Shown: positions 5,487-36,477 of the stretch, piece after piece
Layout: every line of letters begins with the position of its first letter
How positions within the stretch are numbered: position 1 is the stretch's first letter
Origin: a virus
Taxonomy: Duplodnaviria; Caudoviricetes
Virus record (IMG/VR): IMGVR_UViG_2906626472_000001
Coordinates: 32,001 to 96,000 of that record
DNA length: 64,000 nucleotides
Direction: 5' to 3' (one strand)
Notes under the pieces: model-generated
Databases searched by the model: none
What the model was told of the DNA's origin: nothing
The model's input: only the letters and a program-made list of their open reading frames with translations
Position numbers and translations under genes: made by a program

Positions 5487-5780
5487 TCACTGGGGTGGCG
5501 GAGCCTCAGGTATCGCAGTTTCATGGAGCCCATTGTTTCCCTCCAATCGACAAGCCAGCTTCGGCTCGCCCTTGTCGTAAGAACCGGTCGGGACCTGCAC
5601 GAGCTTCAGCGGCTTCGGGCAGCCGACCTCCCAATTGCCGCACTCCTCGCAGACGCCACTGCGTCCGCAGGAATATCGGTTGGTGACTTGGGTGCAGACC
5701 TTGCGGGGAAGCGGCATGTCGCTGCCGCCCTCCTCGCACCCTGCCAGCAGCAGGGCGATCAGGATGACGGCGCGCTTCAT
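5487..5780 (-). CDS. Putative Cys-rich lipoprotein
   Basis: Signal peptide with lipobox LLAGC; several further Cys. Confidence 0.55.
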   Translation of the reverse strand: MKRAVILIALLLAGCEEGGSDMPLPRKVCTQVTNRYSCGRSGVCEECGNWEVGCPKPLKLVQVPTGSYDKGEPKLACRLEGNNGLHETAIPEAPPPQ

Positions 5781-6046
5781 GCGACAGCCCTCCGCCTCAC
5801 CGTGTCGGTGATGCAGTCGTACTCGATCGGGTTGTGATCCTTCAGGAACTGAAGGGCTTTCTGGTGATATTCGCTGCCGGCATCAGCGTAGGTGATGACG
5901 AACCGCCAAGCCTCGATGTCGCTCTTGAACTTGTCGAGTTCGTCACATTTCTGAAGCTGCCACGGACCGTTCTCACTGCCGTAGCATTCGCAAATGCACC
6001 AGCCCTCGTCGATCGCCCGATTGTTGTCGAACGCTGTGACGGTCAT
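5777..6046 (-). CDS. Hypothetical protein
   Basis: MTVTAFDNN... start overlapping the upstream stop (ATGA coupling). Confidence 0.6.
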   Translation of the reverse strand: MTVTAFDNNRAIDEGWCICECYGSENGPWQLQKCDELDKFKSDIEAWRFVITYADAGSEYHQKALQFLKDHNPIEYDCITDTVRRRAVA

Positions 6047-6432
6047 GCTGCCTCCAGATGCGGGATCTCGTGGCGATAGAATTGCGGCTTCGGCGCCTCG
6101 TACCAGAACGCCACACGCGGCGGCTCCTCGTAGACCGCAATGACGATCGGGTTGGCGTTGCGATACCAACGTGCTGCCTTGCGCAGTGTGCGTCCGCTTT
6201 CGCGGGCGGTGTCGATGATGAGGAGCCTGAATTTCTCGGGGCACAGCTGGCCGTACGGGATGAACGGGATGTGCAGCATGTGCGAGGTGTAGACCGCGGC
6301 GATAGCGCCGGACCGGCCAGGCCCCGTGACTGCGCCAACGCTGTCGACGTTGTGCTCCTGAAGGGCGATGCGCAGCTGAGAGGCAAACTCTTCTTCGCTG
6401 ACGATGCGGACAGTTCTTCTCGGGCTAGTCAT
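6043..6432 (-). CDS. Type I phosphoribosyltransferase-like protein
   Basis: GPGRSGAIAA loop and PRPP-loop-like LLIIDTARESGRTL. Confidence 0.6.
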   Translation of the reverse strand: MTSPRRTVRIVSEEEFASQLRIALQEHNVDSVGAVTGPGRSGAIAAVYTSHMLHIPFIPYGQLCPEKFRLLIIDTARESGRTLRKAARWYRNANPIVIAVYEEPPRVAFWYEAPKPQFYRHEIPHLEAA

Positions 6433-14047: not shown

Positions 14048-17000
14048 TCATCCTGCTCCCTGCGCTTCGCGGACAATTCCGCGTAGCTCGAAGAAAATTT
14101 CATTGCGGGCCGGGTCATCCGGGCCGACGTTTTCGATGAACCACCATGCTAGGAAGAGCGCCCGCTCCTTGGCGAACGGGTTCGGTGTCATGGACGGCGC
14201 GAGATGGGTTTCGTCGTACAGGGCCGCAGCCTGCCGGAACTGGGCATGTGTTTTCTTCAGTGCCATCGGCTTTGCTCCGGCTTCGTTTCAGTCAGATCGG
14301 CATCGCTGATCCAGATGAAGCGGTAGACCTTGTCGTGATCGAACAGCGCTTCGGTCTTGCTCAGCAGCTCGACGTCGCGCCAATGCACGGCGTAGCTGTC
14401 TCCCCAGCCCGTGCGCTGCCGCTCAACCGGGGTCCCGCGCTTGACAGCCAGACGATGGATGTCCTGGTAGGTGATGATCAGGTCGCGGCTGACGTACTTC
14501 CATTGCGGCGGTACCTTGTTCATGGGCGTGCTCACTTGGCGTCTGAGCAGATCAGGTGCGCGGCCTTTTCGAGCGTCTTGGCGTCGACGTCCCAAGCCTT
14601 TGCGCTCGTGCCGTCCTGCCAGTTGTGGCGCAGGTGCTCGGCCTTCTCCGAGCAGATCAACGAAAGCCCGGTGACGACATGCGTAAGGCCGTGACGATCG
14701 ATCAGGCCTTCCAAGATGGCGGTGACGTTCTCCATGTCAGTCCTCCAGAGAGTCGAGATAGGCCTGACCAGCAGGCGTGAGGTACAGCTCGCCCAGGATG
14801 AAGACGGCGAAGCCGGCGAGCACAGCGCTCCAGACCGGGCCGAGGATGGCCAAGGCCTCATATGTGAGGGATTGCAGCGCGAGCATTGCATTTGCTTTCA
14901 AGCAAGGCTCAAGGCACACCTCGGGCGCGAAGTGGAAGAGGTTAGGCATTCAGCCCTGCGTATTTGCTCAGATCATCCCAGTCAGCGTCCCAGACGGGAC
15001 GCGGTGTGCTGCCAGGCTCGGTCACGGTGACGCGCTTCACACGGTCGTTAAAGCAGATGCGGTTGCGGTAGAAGTCCCGCGCCTCGCTGAACGATTTGAA
15101 CGGATGCCGGTCGGCCGAGCCGTTCGTGAAGCGAATGATTACGGTGTGCATGCCTCGTCACCTGTTGAATTGCACCAGCGGATTGGTTTGCCCGCCGCTG
15201 GTCGGGCTGTGCGTCCGGTCGCTCGCGGCTTCACCGGTCCAAAAAGTCGTCAGTCGTTCTGCAGCTGGTTGAAACGTGGGGGTCGCTTACTTCATGGCCG
15301 ATCTCCATCGTCGTTGCTCAAACTCGGCACCCTCGCCTTGCGCTTCTTGTTGGGCACAACGCGGGGCTTGTATTTCGGCGTCCGCAGATCACGAGCGATC
15401 GGCGAGCGCCTGACCGTCTTGCGTTTCTTCATGGTCTGCGGCTCGATGAATTGGGGATGGCCGGATAGCGCCGGCCTCGCCACTGCGTTTGGGTCGCAGC
15501 AACCAAATACGCTGCCCATTTCTCCGGGCTCGCGAACTTCACAGTCCTGTCATGGGTGGCCATCCTCGCCAGGCGCGGGCCAGGGCGCCGAAGCTAGGCC
15601 GTTTGATGAGTGGCCCTGCGGATTTCCCCTGCCTTCGTGTGCGGACCGCTTTACCGCACACCTTGGGGTCTCGTTGCCACCTTGCCGCGCCCGTTGCAGG
15701 CGGAGCATGGTGGTGATCCGTCGTTGTCGTAGTAGCCGGAGCCGTTACACGCGCTGCATTTCACCAGCTTCCAGCCCTTCACGTTTTGCTCGAAGTGCTG
15801 GCGTCGCAGCGCCTTGCGCTCGTGGTAGTCCATGCTCGATCTCCCAGCGATTGGTCCGCCAGTACAGATCGGACTCGGACCAGAGACGGTCGCTAACCCG
15901 CACGCGGGCCAGCATCTCTTCGTGCTCCCTGCTCATCGCTCCAGCTCCGCCAGCTCGACTTCGAGCGGGTGATAGTCCTCGAACCTGGTGTTGGCCCAGC
16001 CGCCGCGGGACAGGTCCGACAGGACGCGGATGATCGCCAGCCGGCGCCGCCTGCGCTGCTTTGCACTCATCACAGCCGCCAATGGTTCATGCGGGCGCGG
16101 ATGTCCTCGCGCTCGTTGCTGTTGGCCGGAAGCGGTGAGGGTCGCTCCGCTCCGGCAAACTCGGCGCCGGCAACGAACGCCGCACGCATGGCGCGGTGCT
16201 CGACCGTATCCAGGTTCCAGCGGCGGGCCGCCGCTTCCTCGGCCTCGGACAGGAGGATGCTCATGCTCGCCCCATCTCGCACCAGGGCAGATCGAGAGCG
16301 TGGACCATGTACGCCGAGGTGAAGGCGACGAAGGCGTCGAACTCCATGCAGCGCATGGCCTGCGCCCGGTTGACGACGTAGTGCCGGCCGCCGTCGTCCT
16401 TGAACTCGAAGGCGTCCATGCCGCTCTCGCAGAATGTCCGCGTCGTCCTGGCCGCCCGGTGCTGGCTCTCGATGATGGCCGGATCGCTCTGGAAGGGATC
16501 GGCCGGGTGGAATGGAAGTGACGTCAACATCAGCGCCTCCCGACGTGCAGGGTGGTGGTTTCAGGGGTGAGGATCGAGCGAATGCCGTTGACCAGCTCGG
16601 TGTCGTCGCAGCCGTTGGCGATCAGCTTCTCGGCATGGGCGTAGACTCGAGGGATCGAGGTCATGGGGATCAGGATGCCGGTCACGGCGCGCTGGATCCG
16701 AGCGGCGTCGGCCGCCTGCTGTTTCTTGGTGCGCTTCACGGCTCAAGCCTCGACGAAGGCCCAGCCGCGGGGGACGCGGGGAGCGGGCGGTTGGAGGCGA
16801 GCGAACACGGCGCGGTAGTTGCCGCCATCGTTCAGGACGTGGGCGGCTTCACGGGCGATGCGGAGCGAGCGCATGCAGACCTGTGCGACTGAGCCGTCCT
16901 TGGTGACGACGGTCAGGGTGGGTTGAGGACGTGGGACGAGTCTGGTCACGAACGTTGCTCCTTGAGCGGTGGGGAAGGCATTTGCACGAATGCTAAAGCA

Positions 17001-17311
17001 AATGCAAGAGCAAATTCGCCCTAACAAAGCCAAACTTTCATGCGAAAAGATGAGGGTCCGGAAGGCGCTCAGCGCCCGCCCGGAAATTCGAGAATATTTC
17101 CCGAATAAATGGGCCGCCGACGAATTTCGGACCGCCCCGGGGTATTTTCGAAGGCCGCCTCTAGGGCCTCGATCGTGGCTTGGATCACCTGGTCCTGGAC
17201 ACGGGGAGAGAGGACCACGGAGCCGGCTTCCATCAGGATCGCCGACTGGCTCGGGGTCCGATTGGTGCGGGTAGAGTACGCACAGAACAGAGCGCGCAGA
17301 CGCTCACGCAT
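14048..17311 (-). other. Run of more than a dozen small, tightly coupled leftward early genes (e.g. 14048-14266, 14257-14523, 14532-14735, 14737-14949, 14942-15151, 16070-16264, 16261-16530, 16530-16739, 16743-16950, 17069-17311)
   Basis: Consecutive 60-110 aa ORFs with overlapping stop/start codons, typical of phage host-takeover regions. Confidence 0.6.
15651..15833 (-). CDS. DnaJ-type zinc-finger small protein
   Basis: CSACNGSG...CSACNGRG (CxxCxGxG twice). Confidence 0.65.
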   Translation of the reverse strand: MDYHERKALRRQHFEQNVKGWKLVKCSACNGSGYYDNDGSPPCSACNGRGKVATRPQGVR

Positions 17312-17948
17312 TGGGTTCCTCCATGCGGTTCAGTTTCACGTTTCAGCTGGAAATCACGGGATATCGGGGCCGCCGCCATTCGCGGGCCGCCGGACCTCCA
17401 CCACCTCAAGCAAGAGGCACAGGAGGAGGAGCAGCAGGGACAGGAGACACAGCCAGTAGGGATGGCTCAGGGGAGGGTGCAGACACACGAGGAGTCCACA
17501 CCGGCCTGTTTCTGGCACTCACCAGCACGCAAACACACGGATTTCGAGCGTAGACACGTACGGGCCGTCGTCTCGAAACTTCGCTCGCCATAAAAGAGCG
17601 GATTAATTTTCACGTCGAAATGGGACAAACGGCCCCCTCGGACACAAGATATAGTGCCCGAGGGGGCCAAAATGATCACGAAAGCGGGGTCCAGACCCTG
17701 TTTTGGAGGGGTCACCTACCAGATCTTGTTATCTGGTCAGCTGCGCTATGTGCGCCTCCAGCCCTGAGGCTGCGACTTTGCCTGCCAGTGTCCAGCCGGC
17801 GTATGCAAATGCACACAGGAAGGCAAATGCGACGGGGACGGGGATGACGAGTGCGGAGAGTCTTCTCATGGGATTTCCTTTCAGGGGTTTTGGTCAGGGA
17901 CCGCCAGTGCGCCGGGACGTCGACGGGGCGCACGCCGCCAATTCGGGG

Positions 17949-18167
17949 TTAGCGAGCGCGGATCTGGAGCGCGGCATCGAGCGGAGGGGTGGCGCGCATC
18001 CGGGCGCCGGTCAGCACGGCGTCTTCCAGATCGTCGGTGTAGTAGGCGGAGGGCTCAGCCTTGGAGTAGGGCAGCTCGGCGAAGGCGACGCGGAACTCGC
18101 GGTCACGGCGAGTGAGGCGCATGCCGGACAAAGCGAGGCGCTGACGGGCTTCGGTGATGGTGAACAT
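17949..18167 (-). CDS. Small hypothetical protein
   Basis: AGGA RBS; MFTITEARQRL... Confidence 0.6.
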   Translation of the reverse strand: MFTITEARQRLALSGMRLTRRDREFRVAFAELPYSKAEPSAYYTDDLEDAVLTGARMRATPPLDAALQIRAR

Positions 18168-18224
18168 GGGACGGATTCCTGGCGTGTGGTGAATCGGTGT
18201 TGCGGGGATGGGGTGGAGGCGTGC

Positions 18225-18584
18225 TCAGCCGGCCATGATGCGGCCGACGATCGGCGAGTGGCCGGAGCGCAGGAGGCGATTGGGGCGCGGGTAGACGATG
18301 GGCGCGAACCACTCAGCCGGCTTCTTGCGGATGAGCGGGCGCACGGGTGGCGTGGCCTCGACCGGCTCATGTCCGAGCATGGTGCGGACCTGCCGCACGG
18401 TGGCTTTGGTGACGAGCGTACGCCCGGTGCGGACGCACACGAGGCGTGCGTTGGCTGGCGAGGTCTCGATCTGGCGGAGCGTGGCGCGGGACAGCACGAA
18501 CTCAAGGCGCTGGCCGGAGCTGTCGCGTGGGGTGACCCATGACCCGTCGTGTTGGGTCTGGAGGTAGCCGATGGGTGGTCTCAT
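18225..18584 (-). CDS. Hypothetical protein
   Basis: ORF downstream of a terminator-like hairpin. Confidence 0.5.
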   Translation of the reverse strand: MRPPIGYLQTQHDGSWVTPRDSSGQRLEFVLSRATLRQIETSPANARLVCVRTGRTLVTKATVRQVRTMLGHEPVEATPPVRPLIRKKPAEWFAPIVYPRPNRLLRSGHSPIVGRIMAG

Positions 18585-18602
18585 GGCGTGTGGTCCAAAT
18601 AG

Positions 18603-18637
18603 AAACCCCGCCCGGAGACGGACTCCGAGCGGGGGTT
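18603..18637 (-). terminator. Intrinsic terminator-like hairpin
   Basis: On the minus strand, AACCCCCGCTCGGAG-TCCGT-CTCCGGGCGGGGTTTCT just after the 18666 stop. Confidence 0.55.
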
Positions 18638-18665
18638 GAGGAGGGACGGCAGTGGTGGGGTGGGG

Positions 18666-19286
18666 TTACGCGGCCTGCGCAACCGGGGCGGACGCTGCCG
18701 GAGCGGTGGCGGGGGTTGCCTTGGCTTCCTTCGGAGCCTTGGCGCCGCGCGCAGCGGTGGCGTTCTGCTTCTGGCGCTCGACCGCGGTCTCGTCGCCTTC
18801 CGGGCGAATGGCGAGGAGCTTGGCGATCATGCTGGTATGGTCGCGGCCGGTCTCCTTGTGGTCGCGTTCCATCTTCTTGACGAGCGAGTCGATGGACTTG
18901 GCGATGTCCATGGGCACGTAGTCCGCCTCCGGCTTGAAGGCGTAGAACGGCTTGGCCATGGCGTCGCCCAGCTTGACCGGGTTGGCGCCATTGAACTTGA
19001 TGTCGCCACCTTCCGCGAACGTGACGGGACCGAAAAATTCGAACCACGCCTTGACGGCATTCTTGCGCGTCATGTCGGGCAGCGACGAAAGCAGTTCCGT
19101 CACGAGGCGGATGTCGGAATGCTTGCCGACATGGGCGAGCACGGAGCAGCAAGCGACATGGATGTCGCGTTGCAGGGTCGCACCTCGAGTCTTGATCGAA
19201 GCGAGCGCCTTCTTGATGGCGGTTTCGCCGTCAATGAGCTTGATGACGGACGGAGTAGCAGCCTTAACGGTCGTGGTCTTGGACAT
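18666..19286 (-). CDS. First gene of the leftward early block; phage hypothetical protein
   Basis: ATG at 19286 with AGGAG RBS (MSKTTTVKAATP...); Ala/Pro-rich tail. Confidence 0.75.
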   Translation of the reverse strand: MSKTTTVKAATPSVIKLIDGETAIKKALASIKTRGATLQRDIHVACCSVLAHVGKHSDIRLVTELLSSLPDMTRKNAVKAWFEFFGPVTFAEGGDIKFNGANPVKLGDAMAKPFYAFKPEADYVPMDIAKSIDSLVKKMERDHKETGRDHTSMIAKLLAIRPEGDETAVERQKQNATAARGAKAPKEAKATPATAPAASAPVAQAA

Positions 19287-19289
19287 AGT

Positions 19290-20930
19290 CGGACTCCTGA
19301 TTGACTTGGGGTTTAGATGGGGGTCACGCCCATCGGAAAACGCGAGCGTTAAGCAGCGCTTTGCGAGAGGCATGCAGACACACTCCGAGCGCAGACAGAG
19401 TCGGCGCCCGGAGCGGTTCGGTTTTGGGGAATTTCGAGAGTTGTTAGCCGGGGGAAAGGCTAGGCCTAGTTCCTCGCAAGTCCGGCCAAGCAAAAACCGC
19501 GGTTAGAATTTCGTCGCGGTCCGTCACTTGGCTAACCTTGAAAGGCTATTGAAAAGCTTCACTGTCCCGGCGGACCGTTGCGCCTCAAAGCATGCCATTG
19601 CGGATAGAGGCGGACTCAACGGTCCCGGTTGAACCACGCTACCAGAGGCCGCAGCATTGCGTTATGTCATGGAGTCGGACCGTGACGGCGCAACGTGTCC
19701 CGGATTATGTGCCGTTGTTTGGCTTTAGTCCCGGGCATTGGGCTTGCATTTGAGAGTCGCGCATTGTCCGATTACTAGCCGGGCAATGCGCCATTCCCGC
19801 AAACGTACAGGGTTGATAGCGTAATTTCCGATACTCTCATATGCCGGGTTACCTAACTTAATAGGCCTTCCCATGTGACAGGTCCGTCACTTGAGCGAGA
19901 GGCGTTGCCATGAACGCGGGAAACTTGCCGGACCATATCGCCACTTAAGGCCGCTACTGTGAAACCCGCTTAGAGCATGCTGGCAAGCCGCGCATATCTC
20001 TAGACCGTTTCACCTAACCAAGCCGCCAAGCTTGGCCGGTAACTTCCTTTCCCTCACAACCCGCGATCTAGTGGCACAATGCCAAGCCCGACTAAGGGGA
20101 CTCTAGATCGCCGATTGCTACCGGTAACCCTGTTAGGGTTAGGGCTTTCGGCCCTACTTGGAAGCGGTAGCTATGTCCCGAAAGTTTCTCGCCTAGCTTT
20201 GCTGCCGGTTCCTACCCGGGCAAGCCCGGGACCAAACCATATTGCAAACGCGGTGCAAGAAACCAAAAGCGAAAGGACTTTGAAGGTAAGTCCGAAGTCC
20301 GTTTCGTTTCGGTCCCGAAGCTTCATTGCTTCAGTGACAACAACGTAGCATCAAAAACATGGTTGGAAAGCGAAAAAAATATTCAATGAAATCAGCAAGT
20401 TAGAAGCCCGAAAATTGCATCTCTTGCATTCTCAGAGCAAAAATCGTGCAACAAAAATGCAAGCAAATCAAAGACTTAGCAGAGTGAAACGACGAGTCGG
20501 CAAGTCTGATTTGCATTCCCTTTGGAAAGTCCCCTGAAATGAATACGAAATGAGAACAAACCTTAGACTTTGGTCTAGTCTCTGATCATTTCGAGTATTC
20601 ATCCGGGCGAGAAAAAGATTTCAAAGTTTCGAAAAGAAGAGGATTTTTTTTATTGACATGGCCCCCTCGTGTGGCCGTCCGCTCCAAACTTCCCACGCCC
20701 AAAAGGCCATTTATCACAAGCGCTTGGACCCCACCCGCCCAAACGGCAGCCCCGTGCTACAGCTGCGGCCCGCCATGCGTTAAATCGCTCCCCGAGCTGG
20801 CTCAGTGCCCCCGATCTGGGAGGCCGCTCCTGGGGCTTCTCTGGCCGTTTGCATTCTAGGGGTGGCCTGCAAAAAGACCCCACCCCGTTTTGGGGCCCCA
20901 TCGGGGCGGCCCGCGTCCCAAAAGGCCGAT
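19290..20930. other. Long non-coding, hairpin-rich control region at the transcription divergence point
   Basis: No convincing ORF; lower GC; many inverted repeats; AT-rich promoter-like segment at 20350-20660. Confidence 0.6.
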
Positions 20931-21021
20931 TTCCGAGTGTAGCGAGGGCTTCGCCCTGATACATGAGACCGAACGCCCGCCGCCCATGGGTAGCGAGCGC
21001 TCCGCGCTGATAGGGAGAACC

Positions 21022-21216
21022 ATGGCCGGCCTCGGGCAACACGACACCATCATCGGCTACCGCGTCGACGAGCTGCGCCGGCTCCTCGCCCTGCGGGACG
21101 AGGTGATGCATGTGCTCAGGCCTGGCGCCGATCGGCCGCGCCGCATCGCGGAGTATCTGTCGCAGCGGCACCTCGCCAGGCGCTTCAAGAGCGTCGAGCC
21201 GGCCAACGATCCGTAG
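21022..21216 (+). CDS. Cassette gene 1, hypothetical (64 aa)
   Basis: GGAG RBS right after a repeat; TAG stop 2 nt before the next repeat. Confidence 0.6.
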   Translation: MAGLGQHDTIIGYRVDELRRLLALRDEVMHVLRPGADRPRRIAEYLSQRHLARRFKSVEPANDP

Positions 21217-21237
21217 CTGGGTGGCGAGCGCTCCGCG

Positions 21238-21450
21238 CTAACCGGAAGAGGTTGGTCCCGGCCGCGTGGCCCCGGGGAAGGGGACCACATCGCCGTCCGC
21301 TGCGCGTATCACCGCCTTGGCCATCCGCATCGGGTCGAACCCGAGATCTGCGACCGCGTCGGCTACGCCCTGGCGCTCCAGCTCGGCGACGATCGCCTCG
21401 CTCACCTTCATCAGCCTGGCCAGCTCGGCGGAGCTGTCGGTCATGATCAT
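21238..21450 (-). CDS. Cassette gene 2, hypothetical (70 aa)
   Basis: GAGG RBS; stop codon lies inside the repeat copy at 21219-21241. Confidence 0.6.
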   Translation of the reverse strand: MIMTDSSAELARLMKVSEAIVAELERQGVADAVADLGFDPMRMAKAVIRAADGDVVPFPGATRPGPTSSG

Positions 21451-21528
21451 GCCCTCGGTAAAGCCGAGACCATGGTATCACGCCGGCCGTGGGTAGCGAG
21501 CGCTCCGCGCTGATGGTATCGAGCCGGC

Positions 21529-21945
21529 ATGTGGCAGACCAGGCAATGCGAACACTGCGAGACCCCGTTCACCCGTCGAGACCGGCCGAACCAGCGCTTC
21601 TGCTCGCACGACTGCTCGGTGGCCTTCAAGATTAAGGGCCGCCCGACGAGCCGCCGCTGCGAGTGCTGTCCGACCGTCTTCCCGATCGGTGCCCGGCAGA
21701 AGAACAAGCGCTTCTGCTCGATGCACTGCGTCGGTCTCTGGCGCGAGCGCGAGAAGCGCCTGAACCGGAAACCGGAGCCGCCGAGGATCCGCCGCAAGCC
21801 TGGCCGCCTCGAATGGAAGATCTCCGGCGGCCAGAACAGCCGTGGCATGGCGCCGAGCCCGCGGTCACCGTCGTCGTCGCCGCCCCGCTGGGCTGACCTT
21901 CTGACCAGGCTCGGCTACGCCCGGGTCAGAACCGGGCATGGGTAG
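21529..21945 (+). CDS. Cassette gene 3, tandem zinc-finger protein
   Basis: Two CxxC...RFCSxxC units; TAG stop inside the repeat. Confidence 0.6.
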   Translation: MWQTRQCEHCETPFTRRDRPNQRFCSHDCSVAFKIKGRPTSRRCECCPTVFPIGARQKNKRFCSMHCVGLWREREKRLNRKPEPPRIRRKPGRLEWKISGGQNSRGMAPSPRSPSSSPPRWADLLTRLGYARVRTGHG

Positions 21946-22022
21946 CGAGTGCTCCGCGCTGGACTATTGCAACACTGTCGCGGCGCTGGCAGGAATGCGT
22001 CCATCGTTTTCGGGAGGGGGCA

Positions 22023-22430
22023 ATGGCATCCAGCGACGAACGCGCCAAATTACTCCGAATAAGCCGAGGGCTCGACCGACTAAACAACCCATGTCAATTG
22101 TGTAAGCAACGGGGAGCTATTTCGTCGAAAACACACTTTGCTGCAAATTTCGGATTGGCGTTTACGCGGACTGAAAACCATCTGGAGGGCTACTTTTGCG
22201 GGCCATGCATCCATAAGAAATTTCTGCTTTTTACTTTTATCAATTTGATTGGTTGGTTCGGAATAGTGTCCATCATCAAGGTTCCCATGTTTTTGCTGTC
22301 CAATATTGCGGAGTATGAATTTGCGATCAGGGCTATGCTACGAAAGCGCAAGCAGCGCCTCGCCCTGATTGAGGACTTGCTTGAGAAAGACGCGCAAGCC
22401 CGTCGGAATTTGAGTTCTCGAGGATCCTGA
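22023..22430 (+). CDS. Cassette gene 4, low-GC zinc-ribbon membrane protein
   Basis: GGAGG RBS; CQLC...CGPC followed by a hydrophobic segment. Confidence 0.6.
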   Translation: MASSDERAKLLRISRGLDRLNNPCQLCKQRGAISSKTHFAANFGLAFTRTENHLEGYFCGPCIHKKFLLFTFINLIGWFGIVSIIKVPMFLLSNIAEYEFAIRAMLRKRKQRLALIEDLLEKDAQARRNLSSRGS

Positions 22431-22435
22431 ATCCG

Positions 22436-22645
22436 ATGACGAAACCACCCAAAGAATTGCGCGATCTCGACAAGCAATTTGAGGCGACCCTAATTGCTGT
22501 TCGAGACCTCTATACTAGAGCGATGGAGCTTGGTGTCAGAGACATCGAACGAGCCTCTGAAGTTGCCCACGATGCCCTTGTAGTTTGCAAGCTAGCTCGA
22601 TTACCCACGTCGTGCCGGACGCCCAGAAGTCGAGGGCATGGGTAG
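22436..22645 (+). CDS. Cassette gene 5, hypothetical
   Basis: TAG stop inside the last repeat. Confidence 0.45.
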   Translation: MTKPPKELRDLDKQFEATLIAVRDLYTRAMELGVRDIERASEVAHDALVVCKLARLPTSCRTPRSRGHG

Positions 22646-22813
22646 CGAGCGCTCCGCGCTGATCTAACCGAACTGATCCGCCACCCGGCTGAACGCTGGG
22701 TGCTTCCGGTTCTTCACCTTGAACCAGTTGCACGTCGGCGGCCGGTATCGCCGCTCGCCGTGCTTGGAGACAAAGAAAGGCCCTTGAAACTATCGGGCAA
22801 TCCGTAGATCAGT

Positions 22814-23077
22814 GTGGCCATGGAAGACTCCTCGCCCGAAATAATTATTTGTGCTGCTGTTCGTGCTTCCAATGGAAAGGTCATCAGGGGCCATCGACAC
22901 ATTGATGCTGTTCGCGCACTTCAAGCGATGGACGGATATCAGGGTGAACAACCGCATGGTGACGACCAGGGCTTCGTCACGTCAACTAACAGGTTCGTAG
23001 ATCGACGGGAGGCCTATCGGCTACATTTTCCAGACAGAGAAGAACCAGACGAGCTTCGCAGCGACGACCTGTACTGA
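22814..23077 (+). CDS. Phage hypothetical protein (ICAA...GHRH...QGF...RFVDRREA...SDDLY)
   Basis: Motif set I recognise from a widespread small phage protein family. Confidence 0.65.
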   Translation: MAMEDSSPEIIICAAVRASNGKVIRGHRHIDAVRALQAMDGYQGEQPHGDDQGFVTSTNRFVDRREAYRLHFPDREEPDELRSDDLY

Positions 23078-23096
23078 CTGGGGAAAGAACGCAAAG

Positions 23097-23555
23097 ATGA
23101 AAACTCCAAGACTAAACCTTGTCGTTATTGCTGGCTTGCTCGCAAGCATTTCAGGGGTGAATGCCGGTGATGTGGCTGATAAGCCCGCTGTTTTGTCTGT
23201 CACTTGGTTTGTGGAGGGGCAGCCTCCAGCGACAACCAACACTCCCATGAGCAGCTTAAAGGCGTGCTTGCTGGCGAAGGCTCATGCCGAAGCTGCCGGT
23301 GAGCAGGCTCACAACGAGCGTATTCGTTTGAACGAACAAGATAAGGCTGATGTTTTAGAAGGCCGAGTTTCTAAAGCAGATGAAAAAGGATATTGGCAAG
23401 AAGCCCCCGGCGTTTATGCAGTTGACAAAGAAGGTCAACCGCTCAAACCGAGACCTCCTAAGAAATGGGTAGTCACTGAACTTTCGTCAGAAGCAAAGCG
23501 AAAACTCAAGGGTGTTGCCCCACCTCAACTGAGTGCGTTTTGTATAGAGCAGTGA
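23097..23555 (+). CDS. Low-GC secreted hypothetical protein
   Basis: N-terminal signal peptide; AT-richer codon use. Confidence 0.55.
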   Translation: MKTPRLNLVVIAGLLASISGVNAGDVADKPAVLSVTWFVEGQPPATTNTPMSSLKACLLAKAHAEAAGEQAHNERIRLNEQDKADVLEGRVSKADEKGYWQEAPGVYAVDKEGQPLKPRPPKKWVVTELSSEAKRKLKGVAPPQLSAFCIEQ

Positions 23556-23592
23556 TCTGGGATCGCAAAGGACTGGCAAGTCAGGCGCCGCT

Positions 23593-24186
23593 TCAGAACT
23601 GGTCGGCCACGCGGCTGTAAGCCGGATGCTTTCGGTTCTTCACCTTGATCCAGTCGCAGGTGCGTGATCGGTAGCGCCGCTCGCGGTGCTTCGAGACGAT
23701 CCCCTCCAGCTCCATGCGGCAGGCAGCCTCGAACAGCTGCGGGCCGATCTCGCCCTGTTCGAACGGTGCCACAAAGATACCCTCGGGCCGGCGGTGCAGG
23801 ACTTTGGCAAGCTTTCCCTTGCGCTCGAACAGCGGCAGTTCCCGCAGGTCATCGCCTTCGAGCGCCACGATGTCGAAGGTGTAGAACTGCGCCTCGTCAT
23901 TGTGACGGTTGGAGTGCAGCGCGTTGAAGTCCGAGACCCCCCGCACGTCGAGCACGCAGATCTCGCCGTCGATCACGAAGCTCTTCTGCTTGATCTTCAG
24001 CGCGGCCTCGACGATGAACGGGTAGCGCCAGGTCCAGTCGAGGCCCGACCTGGAGAACACCTTCACGTCCTTGCCATCGCGGACCACGCGCCCGCGGTAG
24101 CCGTCGTACTTGATCTCGTGGATCCAGTCCGGCCCGCTCGGCACCACCTTGCGCATTACAGGTTTGCAATACTCAAATCTAAACAT
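23593..24186 (-). CDS. ATP-dependent DNA ligase adenylation domain (LigD/LigC-like, no OB-fold)
   Basis: EIKYDGYR (motif I), IDGE, FDIV, EGIVSK, WIKVK. Start at ATG 24186 chosen; the ORF extends to 24258. Confidence 0.85.
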   Translation of the reverse strand: MFRFEYCKPVMRKVVPSGPDWIHEIKYDGYRGRVVRDGKDVKVFSRSGLDWTWRYPFIVEAALKIKQKSFVIDGEICVLDVRGVSDFNALHSNRHNDEAQFYTFDIVALEGDDLRELPLFERKGKLAKVLHRRPEGIFVAPFEQGEIGPQLFEAACRMELEGIVSKHRERRYRSRTCDWIKVKNRKHPAYSRVADQF

Positions 24187-24254
24187 GCGCGGCAGATATG
24201 CATGATCGCCGGAGAGTCGAGTCTGTCCGAAAAACGTACCCAATTTTCTGACAG

Positions 24255-24614
24255 TCACAGCTGCAGCGGCAGCGGCAGCTGCACGCCGATTCTCCGGCCG
24301 ACCTGGCTCTCGATGAAGTCCTGCAGCGCGTCGGATATCTCCCGGCCCTCGGTGCCTATCCGGCGCTCCAGCTCGCGGGCGACGTCCTCGCTGGCATCCC
24401 TCGACCAGCCCTCAGCCGGATTGAAGGCGACGACCCGAAGCACCTGGTCGTACTCGCCCCGGAGGAGGTCTTCGATCAGCGTGGAATAGTCGATCCCTTC
24501 GTCGGTCTCGCGGAAGGCCGCGCCGCTCCTGAAGTCCTCCAGCACAAGGTAGAAATCCTTGTCGAGGCGATCGTTCGGCACGATTGACGGCGAGGCCATA
24601 CGCATGAACTCCAC
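24255..24614 (-). CDS. Hypothetical protein (ligase-associated, Bradyrhizobium-type)
   Basis: YLVLEDF...FRETD...VVAFNPAEGWSRDASEDVA recalled from rhizobial ligase loci. Confidence 0.65.
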   Translation of the reverse strand: MEFMRMASPSIVPNDRLDKDFYLVLEDFRSGAAFRETDEGIDYSTLIEDLLRGEYDQVLRVVAFNPAEGWSRDASEDVARELERRIGTEGREISDALQDFIESQVGRRIGVQLPLPLQL

Positions 24615-24640
24615 TGACCGGAGTCCAAGGTATGGGACCG

Positions 24641-24904
24641 TTAACCCGAACGCGAGTCGTTGCTGTCGAGAATCCGCACGTAGGTTCCGCTCTCGTGCAT
24701 CTCCAGGAACTTGCGCCCGATCAGGAAGTCGAGGCCGGCCTTGTACTCAGCCGGGCTGGCGCCGTCGCGGAACAGGAAGGGGTAGTTGATCTTCTCGATG
24801 TGCAGCCGGCCGTCCTGCACGGGCTCGACCTCGCGACAGATATGCATCAGCCGTTTCGCCGCGGCCTCTGGCTTGGCGTAGGGCCGGTCCTCTGCGAGCT
24901 TCAT
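24641..24904 (-). CDS. Hypothetical protein (Bradyrhizobium-type)
   Basis: MKLAEDRPYAKPEAAAKRL...HESGTYVR; coupled start at 24904. Confidence 0.65.
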   Translation of the reverse strand: MKLAEDRPYAKPEAAAKRLMHICREVEPVQDGRLHIEKINYPFLFRDGASPAEYKAGLDFLIGRKFLEMHESGTYVRILDSNDSRSG

Positions 24905-25344
24905 GCGCCAATCCCCCGGTGGGCACAGTGAATGTGCTCGTCCTGAGACGCGATGGTGATGAACTCGCCGCAGAAGCACCTGGCCGGCGCTCCTCGTGTC
25001 TGCGTCGGCAAGAACAGCTTCTCCTCGTGCATCTTGTCCTTCCAGGCGTGAAAATCTCGAGACCGTCGCCACTCCTCGAAGTGTTCTTCGGTGCGGGTGG
25101 CGAGCAGCTTCTCCCAGTCCCTCTCGAACCCGGCTCTGGCTTCCTCGAAGCTCTCAGCTGTCCCGGTCGTCGACTGGCCCGGCTCGCATCCGGGGTAGAA
25201 GCCGCAGCTCCAGCCCCACTGCGGAGTGTGGTTAGGGATGCCGGCTCGCTTTGCGATGTGACCGACCCGCACGTCACCCCAGTAGACGAACCAGCCGCCG
25301 GCTCGGTGTGGGTCCTTGTCGGGCTTGCGATGCAGATGGCTCAT
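24901..25344 (-). CDS. Hypothetical protein
   Basis: WGWSCGFYPG and C-terminal CFCG...H..H; coupled to the next gene. Confidence 0.65.
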   Translation of the reverse strand: MSHLHRKPDKDPHRAGGWFVYWGDVRVGHIAKRAGIPNHTPQWGWSCGFYPGCEPGQSTTGTAESFEEARAGFERDWEKLLATRTEEHFEEWRRSRDFHAWKDKMHEEKLFLPTQTRGAPARCFCGEFITIASQDEHIHCAHRGIGA

Positions 25345-25355
25345 GATTTCTCAGG

Positions 25356-25437
25356 TGTGATCGGCATTCACAGGTGTGATCCTCGTTCACAGGGGGGGTG
25401 TGATCCTTGTTCACACCCGATGTGAACCTGGTTCACA
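25356..25437. repeat. Four tandem TGTGA-N7-TCACA palindromes (iteron- or operator-like)
   Basis: Units at 25356-25372, 25375-25391, 25399-25415 and 25421-25437. Confidence 0.85.
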
Positions 25438-25512
25438 CCTTTAACCTCCCTATAGAACCTTCCACCATAAGAACCATATCCCCTACCCCTTACGGGGCAG
25501 GGCGCTGGCTGG

Positions 25513-25695
25513 TCATTCCGGTTCCTTGATGTAGAGCTGGCCGCCGGCCTCGTAGACCATCGCTTGGTCGTTCTTCACCAGCTCGGCCGCGGCGACGAAG
25601 CTCTCGATCGTGACCCGAACGCCATGCCGGTTCCTGCCAATGGCAGCCAGCAGGGTGGTCTTCAGCTTCTCGAATGCGATCTCGTCCTCGGTCAT
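25513..25695 (-). CDS. Small hypothetical protein
   Basis: AGGA RBS; 60 aa. Confidence 0.55.
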   Translation of the reverse strand: MTEDEIAFEKLKTTLLAAIGRNRHGVRVTIESFVAAAELVKNDQAMVYEAGGQLYIKEPE

Positions 25696-25772
25696 GACCA
25701 GTTCCTATTCCTGCCGGCCGGCGGTTTCAACAGATCGGCCGGAAATACCTCCGAGGTGTTGAAACCGGTCCC

Positions 25773-25853
25773 CATTTGCATTTTCATTTGCCGGACTTGA
25801 CAAACAGGGGGAGGGTGCTGTACCAGATCAGCTACCGTTAGCATTCGTGCAAA
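25773..25853 (+). promoter_or_regulatory. Rightward sigma70-like promoter with flanking TTGC/GCAA boxes
   Basis: CATTTGCATTTTCA at 25773, TTGACA at 25797 and TTAGCATTCGTGCAAA at 25838; same layout as at 40116-40186. Confidence 0.6.
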
Positions 25854-26139
25854 CGGGAAACAAGCCCCAGGACATGGCCCGGAACATACGCCGGGACGTT
25901 GGGCGGCGTCCGGACCCACAAACCCCATGCTGCCGCCGCGATGGCGCCCGGCGAGGCGACACGAGTTCGGCATGTCCAGGCGCTTGCATGAATGCAAACG
26001 GAGGAGGACATCGTGACGGCAGACATCGAGTTCCTGATGGTTCTCAGCAGAACCATCCTGCAGCTGATGCTGCTCTCGGGCAGTGCCATCGTCACGGTCC
26101 TGGTCGTCACCCTCGTCGTCTGGCTGTTCGGAGGTCTGC

Positions 26140-26388
26140 GTGGCTGACCTCCTGCGCGGCGTGTCGCCCGAGCGCAAGGAGAAGATCCTGGCGCGGGCCG
26201 AGGAACTCATCCGCGAAGAGCGGATGCGGCGAGGGCGCTTCGCGCCCCCAGACGAAATCCAAAACGCCGCCGACCCGTTCGAGCTGCGCCCCGCCAACTG
26301 GGTGCTGGCCTCGATGCTCGCCATGGGCGCCGCCACCATCATTGCGCTGATCGCTACCGCCCTGCGTGCGGCAGGCTCCAAAGTTTAA
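26140..26388 (+). CDS. Membrane-anchored hypothetical protein
   Basis: GGAGG RBS before GTG; C-terminal transmembrane segment. Confidence 0.5.
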   Translation: MADLLRGVSPERKEKILARAEELIREERMRRGRFAPPDEIQNAADPFELRPANWVLASMLAMGAATIIALIATALRAAGSKV

Positions 26389-26439
26389 CCAGAGCCCGCG
26401 GCCTGCCCCAGGCAGCCCGGGTCACCATTTGAGGCGTGC

Positions 26440-26718
26440 ATGTCTGTGCCTGACGAACTCGTCGATCTCGCGCTCGAAGCGCTGGAGGCCGAAGTCGCGT
26501 GCTGGCGCAAGGTGCCATGGCGCCCAGACTACACCCGCCTGATGCGCTTCTCGGACACCTGCCGCGGTCCCGTTGGACCTGCGGAGGTTACCGAGGAGGA
26601 GGCGACCATCACCTGCCACGACGTGCCAACGCACATGGCTGACGACATGATCGTCCGCTTCGCGATGGAGAAGGTCGTAGAGGCCGTCATCGGCGCCATC
26701 TCGGTCGGAGGTGAGTGA
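26440..26718 (+). CDS. Hypothetical protein
   Basis: GAGG RBS; coupled to the next gene. Confidence 0.6.
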   Translation: MSVPDELVDLALEALEAEVACWRKVPWRPDYTRLMRFSDTCRGPVGPAEVTEEEATITCHDVPTHMADDMIVRFAMEKVVEAVIGAISVGGE

Positions 26719-26900
26719 TGGCGCGATCGTCTTACGTCTACGTGGTCATGACCAACGGCTCGCCCGAGGCGGCCTTCACGGTCAAGCACGAGCTGGCCAC
26801 CTACCTGAACAAGCGCGACCCCATGAAGCCGCCGTACACCATCTGGCGGCTGCGCGATGGCGGCAAAGAACCCGAACTCACGCAGATCATCGAGCTATGA
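26718..26900 (+). CDS. Small hypothetical protein
   Basis: TGATG coupling. Confidence 0.55.
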   Translation: MARSSYVYVVMTNGSPEAAFTVKHELATYLNKRDPMKPPYTIWRLRDGGKEPELTQIIEL

Positions 26901-27331
26901 CCACAATCGCCTACAAGGACGGAGTGCTCGCTGGCGACACCCTGATGATCAAGGGCTCGACCATCACGGGGCACATCACCAAGATCGTTCGCCGCGAGAG
27001 CGACGGCGCGCTGTGCGGCGGCTCCGGCAATCTCAACTGGCTCCAGGCCTTCCATCGCTGGTTCCTGGACGGCGAGAAGGACGACGAGATGCCCGAGCCG
27101 AGCGAGTATGACAATGCCATCATCGCTCGCAAAGACGATCCCGAAGTCGAGATATTCGAGTTCGGCGGCTCCTTCGTCTTCGAGCCCAACTTCACTGCGA
27201 TCGGCTCCGGCAAGGAATACGCATTCGGCGCCATGAGCGCTGGCGCGGACGCCGAGGAAGCCATCCGGATCGCATGCCTCTACGACCCGGGCACGGGCGG
27301 CGAGGTCCAGGTGGTCCGCCATGACGGCTGA
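26897..27331 (+). CDS. HslV/proteasome-beta-like Ntn-hydrolase protease
   Basis: N-terminus M-TTIAYKDGVLAGDT, plus TKI, GSG, AIGSG and D..TGG motifs. Confidence 0.8.
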   Translation: MTTIAYKDGVLAGDTLMIKGSTITGHITKIVRRESDGALCGGSGNLNWLQAFHRWFLDGEKDDEMPEPSEYDNAIIARKDDPEVEIFEFGGSFVFEPNFTAIGSGKEYAFGAMSAGADAEEAIRIACLYDPGTGGEVQVVRHDG

Positions 27332-27786: not shown

Positions 27787-27861
27787 GCTGGGGTAGCTCA
27801 ACGGTAGAGCGCCTGGCTTCCAACCAGGTGGTTGTGGGTTCGAGCCCCACCCCTCGCTCCA
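27787..27861 (+). tRNA. tRNA-Gly(TCC)
   Basis: Cloverleaf with anticodon arm CCTGG-CTTCCAA-CCAGG, T-arm GTGGG-TTCGAGC-CCCAC, U73 and encoded CCA. Confidence 0.9.
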
Positions 27862-30473: not shown

Positions 30474-30548
30474 GCCTGGGTAGCTCAGCGGTAGAGCAGC
30501 GGGGTCATAATCCGCTTGTCGTAGGTTCGATCCCTGCCCCCGGCACCA
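30474..30548 (+). tRNA. tRNA with CAT anticodon (Met or Ile2)
   Basis: D-arm GCTC-AGCGGTA-GAGC, anticodon arm GCGGG-GTCATAA-TCCGC, T-loop TTCGATC, A73 and CCA. Confidence 0.85.
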
Positions 30549-30656: not shown

Positions 30657-30730
30657 ATCGGGGTCCTCCGGCGTAGGCGGCCGGTCTCCAAAACTGCGCT
30701 GCGAGAGTTCGAGTCTCTCCCCCGGTGCCA
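30657..30730 (+). tRNA. tRNA-Trp(CCA) with atypical D-arm
   Basis: Acceptor ATCGGGG/CCCCGGT, loop CTCCAAA, T-arm GAGAG-TTCGAGT-CTCTC, G73 and CCA. Confidence 0.75.
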
Positions 30731-36403: not shown

Positions 36404-36477
36404 GACGCGGTGGCCGAGCGGCCAGGCAGCAGATTGCAACCCTGCGGAGGCTGGTTCGACTCCAGCCCGCGTCTCCA
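36404..36477 (+). tRNA. tRNA-Cys(GCA)
   Basis: Acceptor GACGCGG/CCGCGTC, loop TTGCAAC, T-arm GCTGG-TTCGACT-CCAGC, U73 and CCA. Confidence 0.9.

Follow-up and report, generated by a model that had tools for sequence, protein, structure and literature searches.

Most unknown phage genes sit in a few hypervariable spots, and the route by which they enter and leave is known for very few phage groups. Integron attC sites are about 57–141 nt long, with paired inverse core sites (R and L boxes) and a GTTRRRY core, and the sites of repetitive extragenic palindromic (REP) elements and their RAYT transposases pair a GT[A/G]G head with an imperfect palindrome lying 3′ of it. The promoter-early stem-loop (PeSL) elements of T4-type phages, which contain a strong sigma-70-type early promoter, are described (Arbiol et al. 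2010, PMC2839356; Comeau et al. 2014, PMC4122927) as a repeated intergenic motif of hyperplastic regions, found beside genes without homologues and laid out as an upstream stop codon, a stem-loop, and then the Shine-Dalgarno sequence and start of the next gene; they mediate modular shuffling and mini-circle formation by recombination, and are also regulatory. For N4-type hairpins, a review (PMC4496689) holds that their chemistry allows extrusion at physiological supercoiling, a 5′G..A3′ loop with a C:G closing pair letting hairpins extrude and resist single-stranded DNA-binding protein (SSB), and a 2026 review deals with GCGNAGC mini-hairpins. Here we analyse an array of six short hairpin repeats at positions 20937–22662 of a 64,000-nt stretch of viral DNA (the window, i.e., positions 32,001 to 96,000 of IMG/VR record IMGVR_UViG_2906626472_000001), a locus that a first-pass annotation had read as either an integron-like array of gene cassettes or an array of hairpin promoters. 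The element marks the exact borders of small genes that differ between otherwise syntenic phages.

Six copies of a hairpin repeat in a single array

All six copies lie on the plus strand, with none expected by chance, and the repeat unit spans 23–34 nt with the pattern GT[A/G]G-CG-AGCGC-TNC-GCGCT. The 23-mer GGGTAGCGAGCGCTCCGCGCTGA has five plus-strand matches with at most three mismatches, exact at 20988, 21491 and 22640 and with two mismatches at 21219 and 21940 (mean of 0.00 matches in 100 dinucleotide-preserving shuffles), and the sixth copy (20937–20959, GTGTAGCGAGGGCTTCGCCCTGA) has four mismatches to it. Repeat detection returned a six-member family of 34 nt that includes this copy, with start spacings of 51, 231, 272, 449 and 700. 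These equal the gaps of 28, 208, 249, 426 and 677 nt given in the first-pass annotation, so that its copy count, spacings and common orientation are all reproduced. A looser 16-nt pattern gave 12 matches vs. 2.4 expected, the six array copies having zero or one mismatch and the other six having two, and a covariance model built from 49 copies recovered only the six array copies from the 64-kb window (E 2.7e-8 to 9.4e-6; next hit, E 0.66).

Copies 2 (20988–21010), 4 (21491–21513) and 6 (22640–22662) match the consensus exactly, copy 3 (21219–21241) has the head GTGG and a tail A, and copy 5 (21940–21962) has the stem AGTGC with a G-T wobble. Copy 1 (20937–20959; covariance-model E 6.7e-6) carries the variant stem AGGGC-TTC-GCCCT, a compensatory change noticed at first pass and seen directly in the sequence. 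The four long gaps hold ORFs (open reading frames) at 21022–21216 (+), 21238–21450 (−, hereafter F0), 21529–21945 (+), and 22023–22430 (+) together with 22436–22645 (+), and their GC content is 0.69, 0.69 and 0.68 in the first three gaps and 0.505 in the last (window mean, 0.614), in agreement with the earlier description of one or two ORFs per gap, in either orientation and of differing GC. That an ORF stops in or beside a repeat in each long gap is equally borne out: a TAG stop at 21214–21216 lies 2 nt ahead of copy 3, the minus-strand stop at 21238–21240 overlaps the end of copy 3, whose last bases form its TAG, and the TAG stops of ORFs 21529–21945 and 22436–22645 (21943–21945 and 22643–22645) lie within the GTAG heads of copies 5 and 6. 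On the start side, copy 2 is followed by GGGAGA and an ATG 13 nt past its stem.

A CRISPR array was considered and rejected, the gaps of 28–677 nt being irregular and holding ORFs with high GC at the third codon position.

The repeats border the variable genes of a phage lineage

The proteins encoded in the window include a large terminase subunit, a portal protein, a major head protein and a tail fibre. With the capsid protein of Bradyrhizobium phage BDU-MI-1 (KY940711.1; 121,342 bp; host B. diazoefficiens USDA110), that of the window shares 86.8% identity; for every other GenBank phage the value stays below 51%, SPP1-like Bacillus phages coming next. The window aligns to 21.8–86 kb of a 127.6-kb IMG/VR relative. 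By these similarities, the window is identified as part of a temperate BDU-MI-1-like Bradyrhizobium phage. A megablast of window positions 17000–27000 against the phage collection gave no match.

A strict motif scan of IMG/VR found 17 loci in 15 records, eight of which encode a capsid protein 83–92% identical to that of the window (all eight are proviruses or linear fragments per IMG/VR, with the exception of G011, 108,080 bp, which has direct terminal repeats). These eight relatives and BDU-MI-1 each have one array of 3–6 copies on a single strand, about 20–27 kb upstream of the capsid gene and on the capsid-gene strand; with the window included, ten BDU-MI-1-like phages in all carry the array at the same syntenic place. 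G011 has a second array, inverted and on the other arm, where each copy is followed by the Shine-Dalgarno sequence and ATG of three paralogous genes. In the complete relative G007 the covariance model gave six hits, all at 63,280–65,007, and no copies outside arrays were found in complete G007, complete G011 or the window. The element is thus confined to one hypervariable accessory-gene locus of BDU-MI-1-like phages, beside a small DNA ligase gene.

Around this locus, alignments between phages cover the array flanks at about 70–88% identity but mostly not the content of the array. Clustering of 57 ORFs from eight phage arrays (each taken with 400 nt to the left and 1200 nt to the right) gave 42 clusters, 31 of them singletons. 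Even the commonest cassette gene, F0, changes place: it is third of five in the window, opens the array in G012 and G019, and closes it in G007; the pair of F0 and the zinc-finger-like gene at 21529–21945 is common to the window and G012. Homology ends at repeats, as in the matches of window positions 21218–21511 to G019 and 21262–21960 to G012, and 19 of 44 BLAST segment ends fall within 10 nt of a repeat vs. 12.9% of positions (binomial P about 7e-7), four of the repeat-proximal segments being self-matches of the repeat only. Independent metagenome contigs likewise lose their match to the window at 21011, 21513 and 21965, or gain it at 20990, with unrelated sequence beyond; in sequencing run X2, positions 22005–22505 were without coverage and no contig bridged them. 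The scan of whole genomes and relatives that the first-pass annotation had proposed therefore places a single array at a syntenic site whose content differs, and the relatives carry different genes between the repeats; the identical gene content that would have refuted the cassette reading is not seen. Its description of a cassette-like array holds in this sense, with content varying between relatives and homology breaking at the repeats. Throughout, the repeats keep one orientation and the genes between them may run either way (four plus and one minus in the window); in BDU-MI-1, all the genes annotated in the stretch that spans the ligase and the array run opposite to the repeats.

Beyond these phages, repeat variants also flank small genes on Bradyrhizobium plasmids and occur in at least three other provirus groups without the window's capsid gene. 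The array adjoins a ligase gene in three phage groups, and no gene except the ligase and F0 is common to all repeat-bearing groups. Five Bradyrhizobium genomes (8.1–9.9 Mb) had 2, 2, 7, 1 and 2 matches (0, 0, 4, 0 and 0 with a reversed-pattern control). A genome-wide motif scan gave at least 120 stretches, and the 80 listed each hold a single match and come from very diverse taxa, five being named Bradyrhizobium; these matches are mostly a chance-like background. A common host REP element, raised at first pass as an explanation that would undo the cassette interpretation, is ruled out by the 1–7 copies per Bradyrhizobium genome. Rfam returned only tRNAs at gathering thresholds (best hit within 19300–23700, E 0.53), and in the searchable literature, supplements not covered, queries on the motif, BDU-MI-1 and intergenic phage repeats yielded no description of the element.

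Two of the matching loci show further features. On Bradyrhizobium barranii plasmid NZ_CP088101.1, at 6280–6340, an F0 cassette and two repeat variants abut what looks like a tRNA gene's 3′ portion, with T arm, acceptor end and CCA, which suggests the edge of an integrated element. In IMGVR_UViG_3300036913_000020, positions 5690–5880 hold a tandem array of 21-nt period whose unit resembles the repeat head plus half of the stem (GTAGCGAGGGCTACGCGCTC) and has no potential to fold into the hairpin; we take it for a probable coding repeat, unrelated to the array.

Anatomy of the repeat unit

In each unit, a head (GT[A/G]G or CCGG) and an invariant CG precede a 5-bp G+C stem, whose 3-nt loop reads T-N-C on the top strand and G-N-A on the bottom strand. 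Among 49 distinct copies, the CG ahead of the stem and most stem positions are invariant and the sequence downstream of the stem is not conserved. Heads are GTAG in 24 copies, CCGG in nine, and GTGG and GCAG in five each (GT[A/G]G in 29 of 49), CATGG or CGTGG immediately precedes the head in 21 of 49, and loops are TCC (21), TTC (20), TAC (5), TGC (2) or TAA (1). A bottom-strand G-N-A loop with a C:G closing pair (the AGCGC-GNA-GCGCT design) is found in 48 of the 49. The analogy with GNA mini-hairpins drawn in the first-pass annotation is apt as far as this chemistry goes (PMC4496689), and stands as a resemblance, not as membership.

The unit is closely fitted to the ends of its neighbouring genes. 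Plus-strand ORFs end at the TAG of the head, so that two unrelated ORFs of the window both terminate in the residues GHG, and plus-strand starts, with GGAG-like sequences, lie 13–17 nt past the stem (six cases). Minus-strand ORFs stop in GCGCTA/CTA at the stem end and start at the CAT of CATGG, 6 nt ahead of the CG (six cases). In G014 and G016 the order ligase-repeat-cassette-repeat-F0, or a permutation of it, forms a single same-strand run.

Searching with an anchor independent of the stem, 42 of 344 matches paired at all five positions: 33 as AGCGC/GCGCT, seven as AGGGC/GCCCT and two as GGCGC/GCGCC. With the middle stem pair left free, the IMG/VR scan gave C-G 16 times, G-C four times, G/G twice and A/A once, the G/G cases coming from the unrelated 21-nt tandem repeat. 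Modest support for a hairpin structure thus comes from a single clean compensatory pair and from different stems occurring side by side in one phage. Two other roles were rejected: an operator read as sequence by a dimeric protein is unlikely, since AGCGC and AGGGC stems are found together within a single phage, and a Shine-Dalgarno function of the bottom-strand loop fails with GGA in only 21 of 49 loops.

Probable exchange of accessory genes at the repeats, and its alternatives

We consider it on balance probable that the repeats are conserved gene-junction hairpin elements at which recombination shuffles accessory genes. Recombination between the short direct repeats would add, remove and replace genes, most economically through homologous or short-homology exchange among co-infecting phages and prophages, as proposed for the PeSLs of T4-type phages. 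The hairpin would be kept by selection for structure in single-stranded nucleic acid, and the folded strand is probably the bottom one, on which C-GNA-G would make an unusually stable mini-hairpin able to extrude from supercoiled DNA. Given the same-strand runs opposite to the repeats in BDU-MI-1 and the single-strand runs in G014 and G016, the ancestral form may have been the intercistronic joint of a leftward operon, with a stop overlapping the stem, the hairpin, and an ATG 8 nt beyond; in the window, plus-strand genes would later have been placed between such joints. The exchange could proceed by ordinary short-homology recombination or by a structure-directed reaction.

Several points weigh against this reading. 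Recombination at the repeats was not seen directly and no enzyme was identified, and short direct repeats 200–700 bp apart should delete readily, so that their persistence may need some further function. The absence of the element from other intergenic regions argues against a general expression signal. As to the hairpin itself, the 98.8% of cells that pair in the 49-row alignment belong to rows pre-selected for at most one stem mismatch, with one pair changed on both sides (seven rows), and covariation is limited to that pair; the AGGGC copies, often first in their array, may stem from one or two events; and the folding energies of single copies were not better than those of shuffles (z −2.2 to +1.0). 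Finally, the four single-mismatch array variants are all transitions; two leave a top-strand wobble and two a bottom-strand one, which does not favour either strand as the one that folds.

A pure expression signal is unlikely, though it is the alternative that fares best. The element would then be an intercistronic RNA hairpin (a stabiliser, processing site or attenuator) or a protein-binding site, and the mosaic breakpoints a by-product of the repeats being the sole shared sequence. Such a role would suit repeats wedged between stop and start, with six plus-strand and six minus-strand starts at set distances, as well as the second array of G011, which precedes three paralogous genes each with a Shine-Dalgarno sequence and ATG; PeSLs, too, are described as regulatory (PMC2839356, PMC4122927). 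However, the orientation of the repeats is independent of that of the genes, which would give an mRNA loop of UNC for some and GNA for others, and the covariance model finds the element missing from all other intergenic regions of the phage. The repeats have neither a U tract nor sigma-70-like hexamers, and no Rfam match: between 19300 and 23700, two sigma-70-type promoters were predicted (E. coli consensus), both on the minus strand and neither overlapping a repeat, and none of five terminator-like sites coincides with a repeat.

Less likely still is a dedicated cassette-capture system, in which a phage or host enzyme would read the folded bottom-strand hairpin and insert or excise gene-plus-repeat units, as a functional analogue of integron attC recombination or of HUH/Y1 single-stranded DNA transposition. 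What speaks for it is the strict single orientation of copies within an array, the invariant CG and conserved head outside the stem, the near-empty units (a 28-nt gap in the window and gaps of 88–126 nt in relatives), the joint presence of repeats and the same cassette, F0, in three phage groups as well as on Bradyrhizobium plasmids, and the way in which unrelated ORFs take their stop codons from the repeat. The GT[A/G]G head ahead of the hairpin also recalls REP/RAYT sites. Against it, the search for a tyrosine recombinase or HUH enzyme suggested at first pass yielded only a phage integrase (PF00589) in four of five relatives, tens of kilobases from the array (in G006, at 23.8 kb vs. the array at 83 kb) and undetected in the fifth; the earlier remark that no recombinase is visible in the window is supported, the relatives' integrases having no homologue there (best E 0.6). 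The Y1 (RAYT) transposase PF01797 was found in none of the five relatives, in a search in which positive-control genomes matched and which did not extend to host genomes. Only the ligase and F0 are shared by all repeat-bearing phage groups, and the repeat has neither the length nor the core sites of attC. The integron mechanism put forward in the first-pass annotation is accordingly unsupported, there being no adjacent integrase, a repeat far shorter than attC, and genes running both ways.

A bolder form of this idea, which we regard as a little more doubtful again, is a hairpin-directed gene-capture system of temperate phages, in which the extruded C-GNA-G mini-hairpin would be cut and rejoined by an unrecognised enzyme, possibly one that could work with the minimal ATP-dependent ligase linked to the array in three phage groups. 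If true, this would amount to an integron-like cassette platform without an integron integrase.

We think it very improbable that the element is a selfish miniature repeat (REP- or MITE-like) with local spread and no role for the phage. Its head-plus-hairpin form and its presence in several unrelated phage groups and on plasmids would fit, but Bradyrhizobium genomes of 8–10 Mb hold only 1–7 copies, the repeats always form small same-strand clusters at gene borders and are never dispersed, and no cognate transposase was found in the five relatives.

The last alternative concerns polymerases, and the large proteins of the relatives bear on it. The largest ORFs of the complete relatives encode 1151 aa (G007, a ribonucleotide reductase) and 1208 aa (G011); the 1,100-aa-class ORFs of G007 are the ribonucleotide reductase and a tail tape-measure protein, and its other large proteins include helicases and a Toprim-DnaB primase-helicase. 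No T7-type polymerase or virion RNA polymerase was found in the relatives searched, nor any sigma-70 region 2 or sigma factor, and PF00940 had no match in five relatives, in a search whose control was also blank. It is thus hardly credible that the repeats are promoters of the N4 type, or priming sites, at which a phage polymerase or primase would read the hairpin extruded from the bottom strand. The bottom strand AGCGC-GNA-GCGCT with its C:G closing pair does have the stem, 3-nt loop and sheared G:A of such sites (PMC4496689), the geometry would put the start about 11 nt right of the loop, just before the GGGAGA-ATG at copy 2, and the relatives encode the Toprim-DnaB primase-helicase, but ORFs of at most 1151–1208 aa, the PF00940 and sigma-70 results, about half of the array genes facing the wrong way and the lack of conservation downstream of the stem all tell against this reading, and the hairpin-promoter array proposed at first pass is unsupported on the same grounds, two complete relatives having no N4-like or T7-like polymerase and many genes pointing against the repeat.

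Cassette genes and flanking sequences

A Pfam search of the cassette proteins gave nothing beyond a weak zf-FCS match below the cut-off (E 0.0029) in the 138-aa protein, and PADLOC gave no match. For the 64-aa product of 21022–21216 (+) no family was found; the gene is missing in the eight relatives compared, and a metagenome contig that carries it begins to match the window at copy 2. F0 (21238–21450, −; 70 aa) is the commonest cassette, with 323 homologues in Bradyrhizobium and soil metagenomes, and has no Pfam match. An AlphaFold model predicts a three-helix bundle (pLDDT 86); no Foldseek match in the PDB was better than E 6, and the best hit against PDB profiles, at E 6.5e-4, was a Cpl-7 lysozyme repeat, while a UBA domain reached E 0.13. 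Some JGI records name F0 homologues ‘RuvA DNA-binding subunit’ or ‘ThiS’. From these results we assign no function to F0. The 138-aa product of 21529–21945 (+) has two CxxC...RFCSxxC zinc-finger-like motifs and matches, in PHROGs, a zinc-finger region associated with HNH endonucleases. The protein may bind nucleic acid, and is common to the window and G012 only, just two of the arrays compared. The low-GC cassette (22023–22645, +; GC 0.505) holds two ORFs of 135 and 69 aa, the former a predicted membrane protein with a hydrophobic stretch, for which a search of 5.8 billion proteins gave one homologue.

On the right-hand side of the array, the final ~100 nt of the ligase gene (23596–23697) recur at 22670–22771 as a direct duplicate of 81% identity. 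The two ligase ends bracket a pair of plus-strand genes, 22814–23077 and 23097–23555, with a GC of 0.53. The ligase stop adjoins the last repeat in G008 and G019, and because of this arrangement in relatives positions 22772–23592 look like an insertion; G007 has three copies of the ligase-end segment, and the duplicated segment looks like a second kind of insertion joint. The ligase itself (23593–24258, −) is an ATP-dependent DNA ligase of 221 aa that, in Pfam, comprises the adenylation domain without the OB domain (RNA_ligase also matches, E 9.8e-9), and its homologues in BDU-MI-1, G014 and G016 end at the identical residue; it is linked to the array in three phage groups.

To the left of copy 1, a non-coding block at 20813–20933 is conserved in six phages and includes a minus-strand terminator-like hairpin (20896–20882) with a T run. 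The region from 19500 to 20936, 1.4 kb with a GC of 0.53 and no convincing ORFs, separates the array from a leftward gene block, and the cumulative GC skew of the window peaks near 20 kb. Most genes flanking the array have no Pfam family, and the left neighbour (18666–19493) matched only unnamed viral clusters in the ESM Atlas.

To the right of the array, the interval separating the leftward ligase operon from the rightward late genes holds a second hairpin family, GGGCGC-TNC-GCGCC. It occurs at 26233 in the window and in four other loci (L140 at 9520 and 10680, L142 at 2959, L141 and L143), and in relatives a AGAGTCATAACCAAAC-like sequence comes after it. Elsewhere in the window ARAGORN called four tRNA genes, Gly-TCC (27787–27861), Met-CAT (30474–30548), Trp-CCA (30657–30730) and Cys-GCA (36404–36477); Rfam confirms three of the four, and the Trp call overlaps the start of the tail-fibre ORF.

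Comparison with known systems

The joints described here are unusually sharp: a repeat of about 25 nt, at one locus, in several Bradyrhizobium phage groups and on plasmids, with the chemistry of an extrudable DNA mini-hairpin. With BDU-MI-1 and its non-pathogenic host B. diazoefficiens USDA110, gene exchange, cruciform extrusion and expression could all be measured at one defined site, and soil viromes could be screened for accessory-gene islands by means of the repeat as a simple sequence tag.

Compared with REP/RAYT systems, there is a partial likeness in a GT[A/G]G head followed by a hairpin at gene ends, in 29 of 49 copies (the other 20 heads differ, nine being CCGG). However, there are 1–7 copies per host genome rather than hundreds, no RAYT was found in the phages, and the copies form clustered direct arrays rather than dispersed sites or inverted pairs. 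N4 virion RNA polymerase promoters (PMC4496689) share with the repeat a short G+C stem and, on one strand, a 3-nt loop with 5′G and 3′A and a C:G closing pair. Unlike them, the array comes with no detected virion RNA polymerase (about 3500 aa in N4) and no conserved initiation region, and its repeats are not consistently upstream of co-oriented genes, the annotated array genes of BDU-MI-1 all lying on the opposite strand.

Integron attC sites also resemble the repeat. In both, same-orientation repeats with a folded strand enclose small genes that vary and mostly have no known function, a stop codon can come from the repeat, and cassette content differs between relatives. Yet there is no IntI, attI or Pc near the array, the unit is 23–34 nt with one 5-bp stem and no GTTRRRY core, and the genes lie in both orientations.

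The PeSLs of T4-type phages differ from the repeat in several respects: the element here has no sigma-70 promoter, is much shorter at 23–34 nt, forms one array per genome rather than about 50 dispersed copies, borders genes in both orientations, and belongs to a temperate, siphovirus-like phage of a high-GC alphaproteobacterium. What they have in common is a repeated intergenic motif of a hyperplastic region that bounds insertions, deletions and replacements between close relatives, and the same succession of stop codon, stem-loop, and Shine-Dalgarno sequence with start. The PeSLs of T4-type phages are the closest described case.

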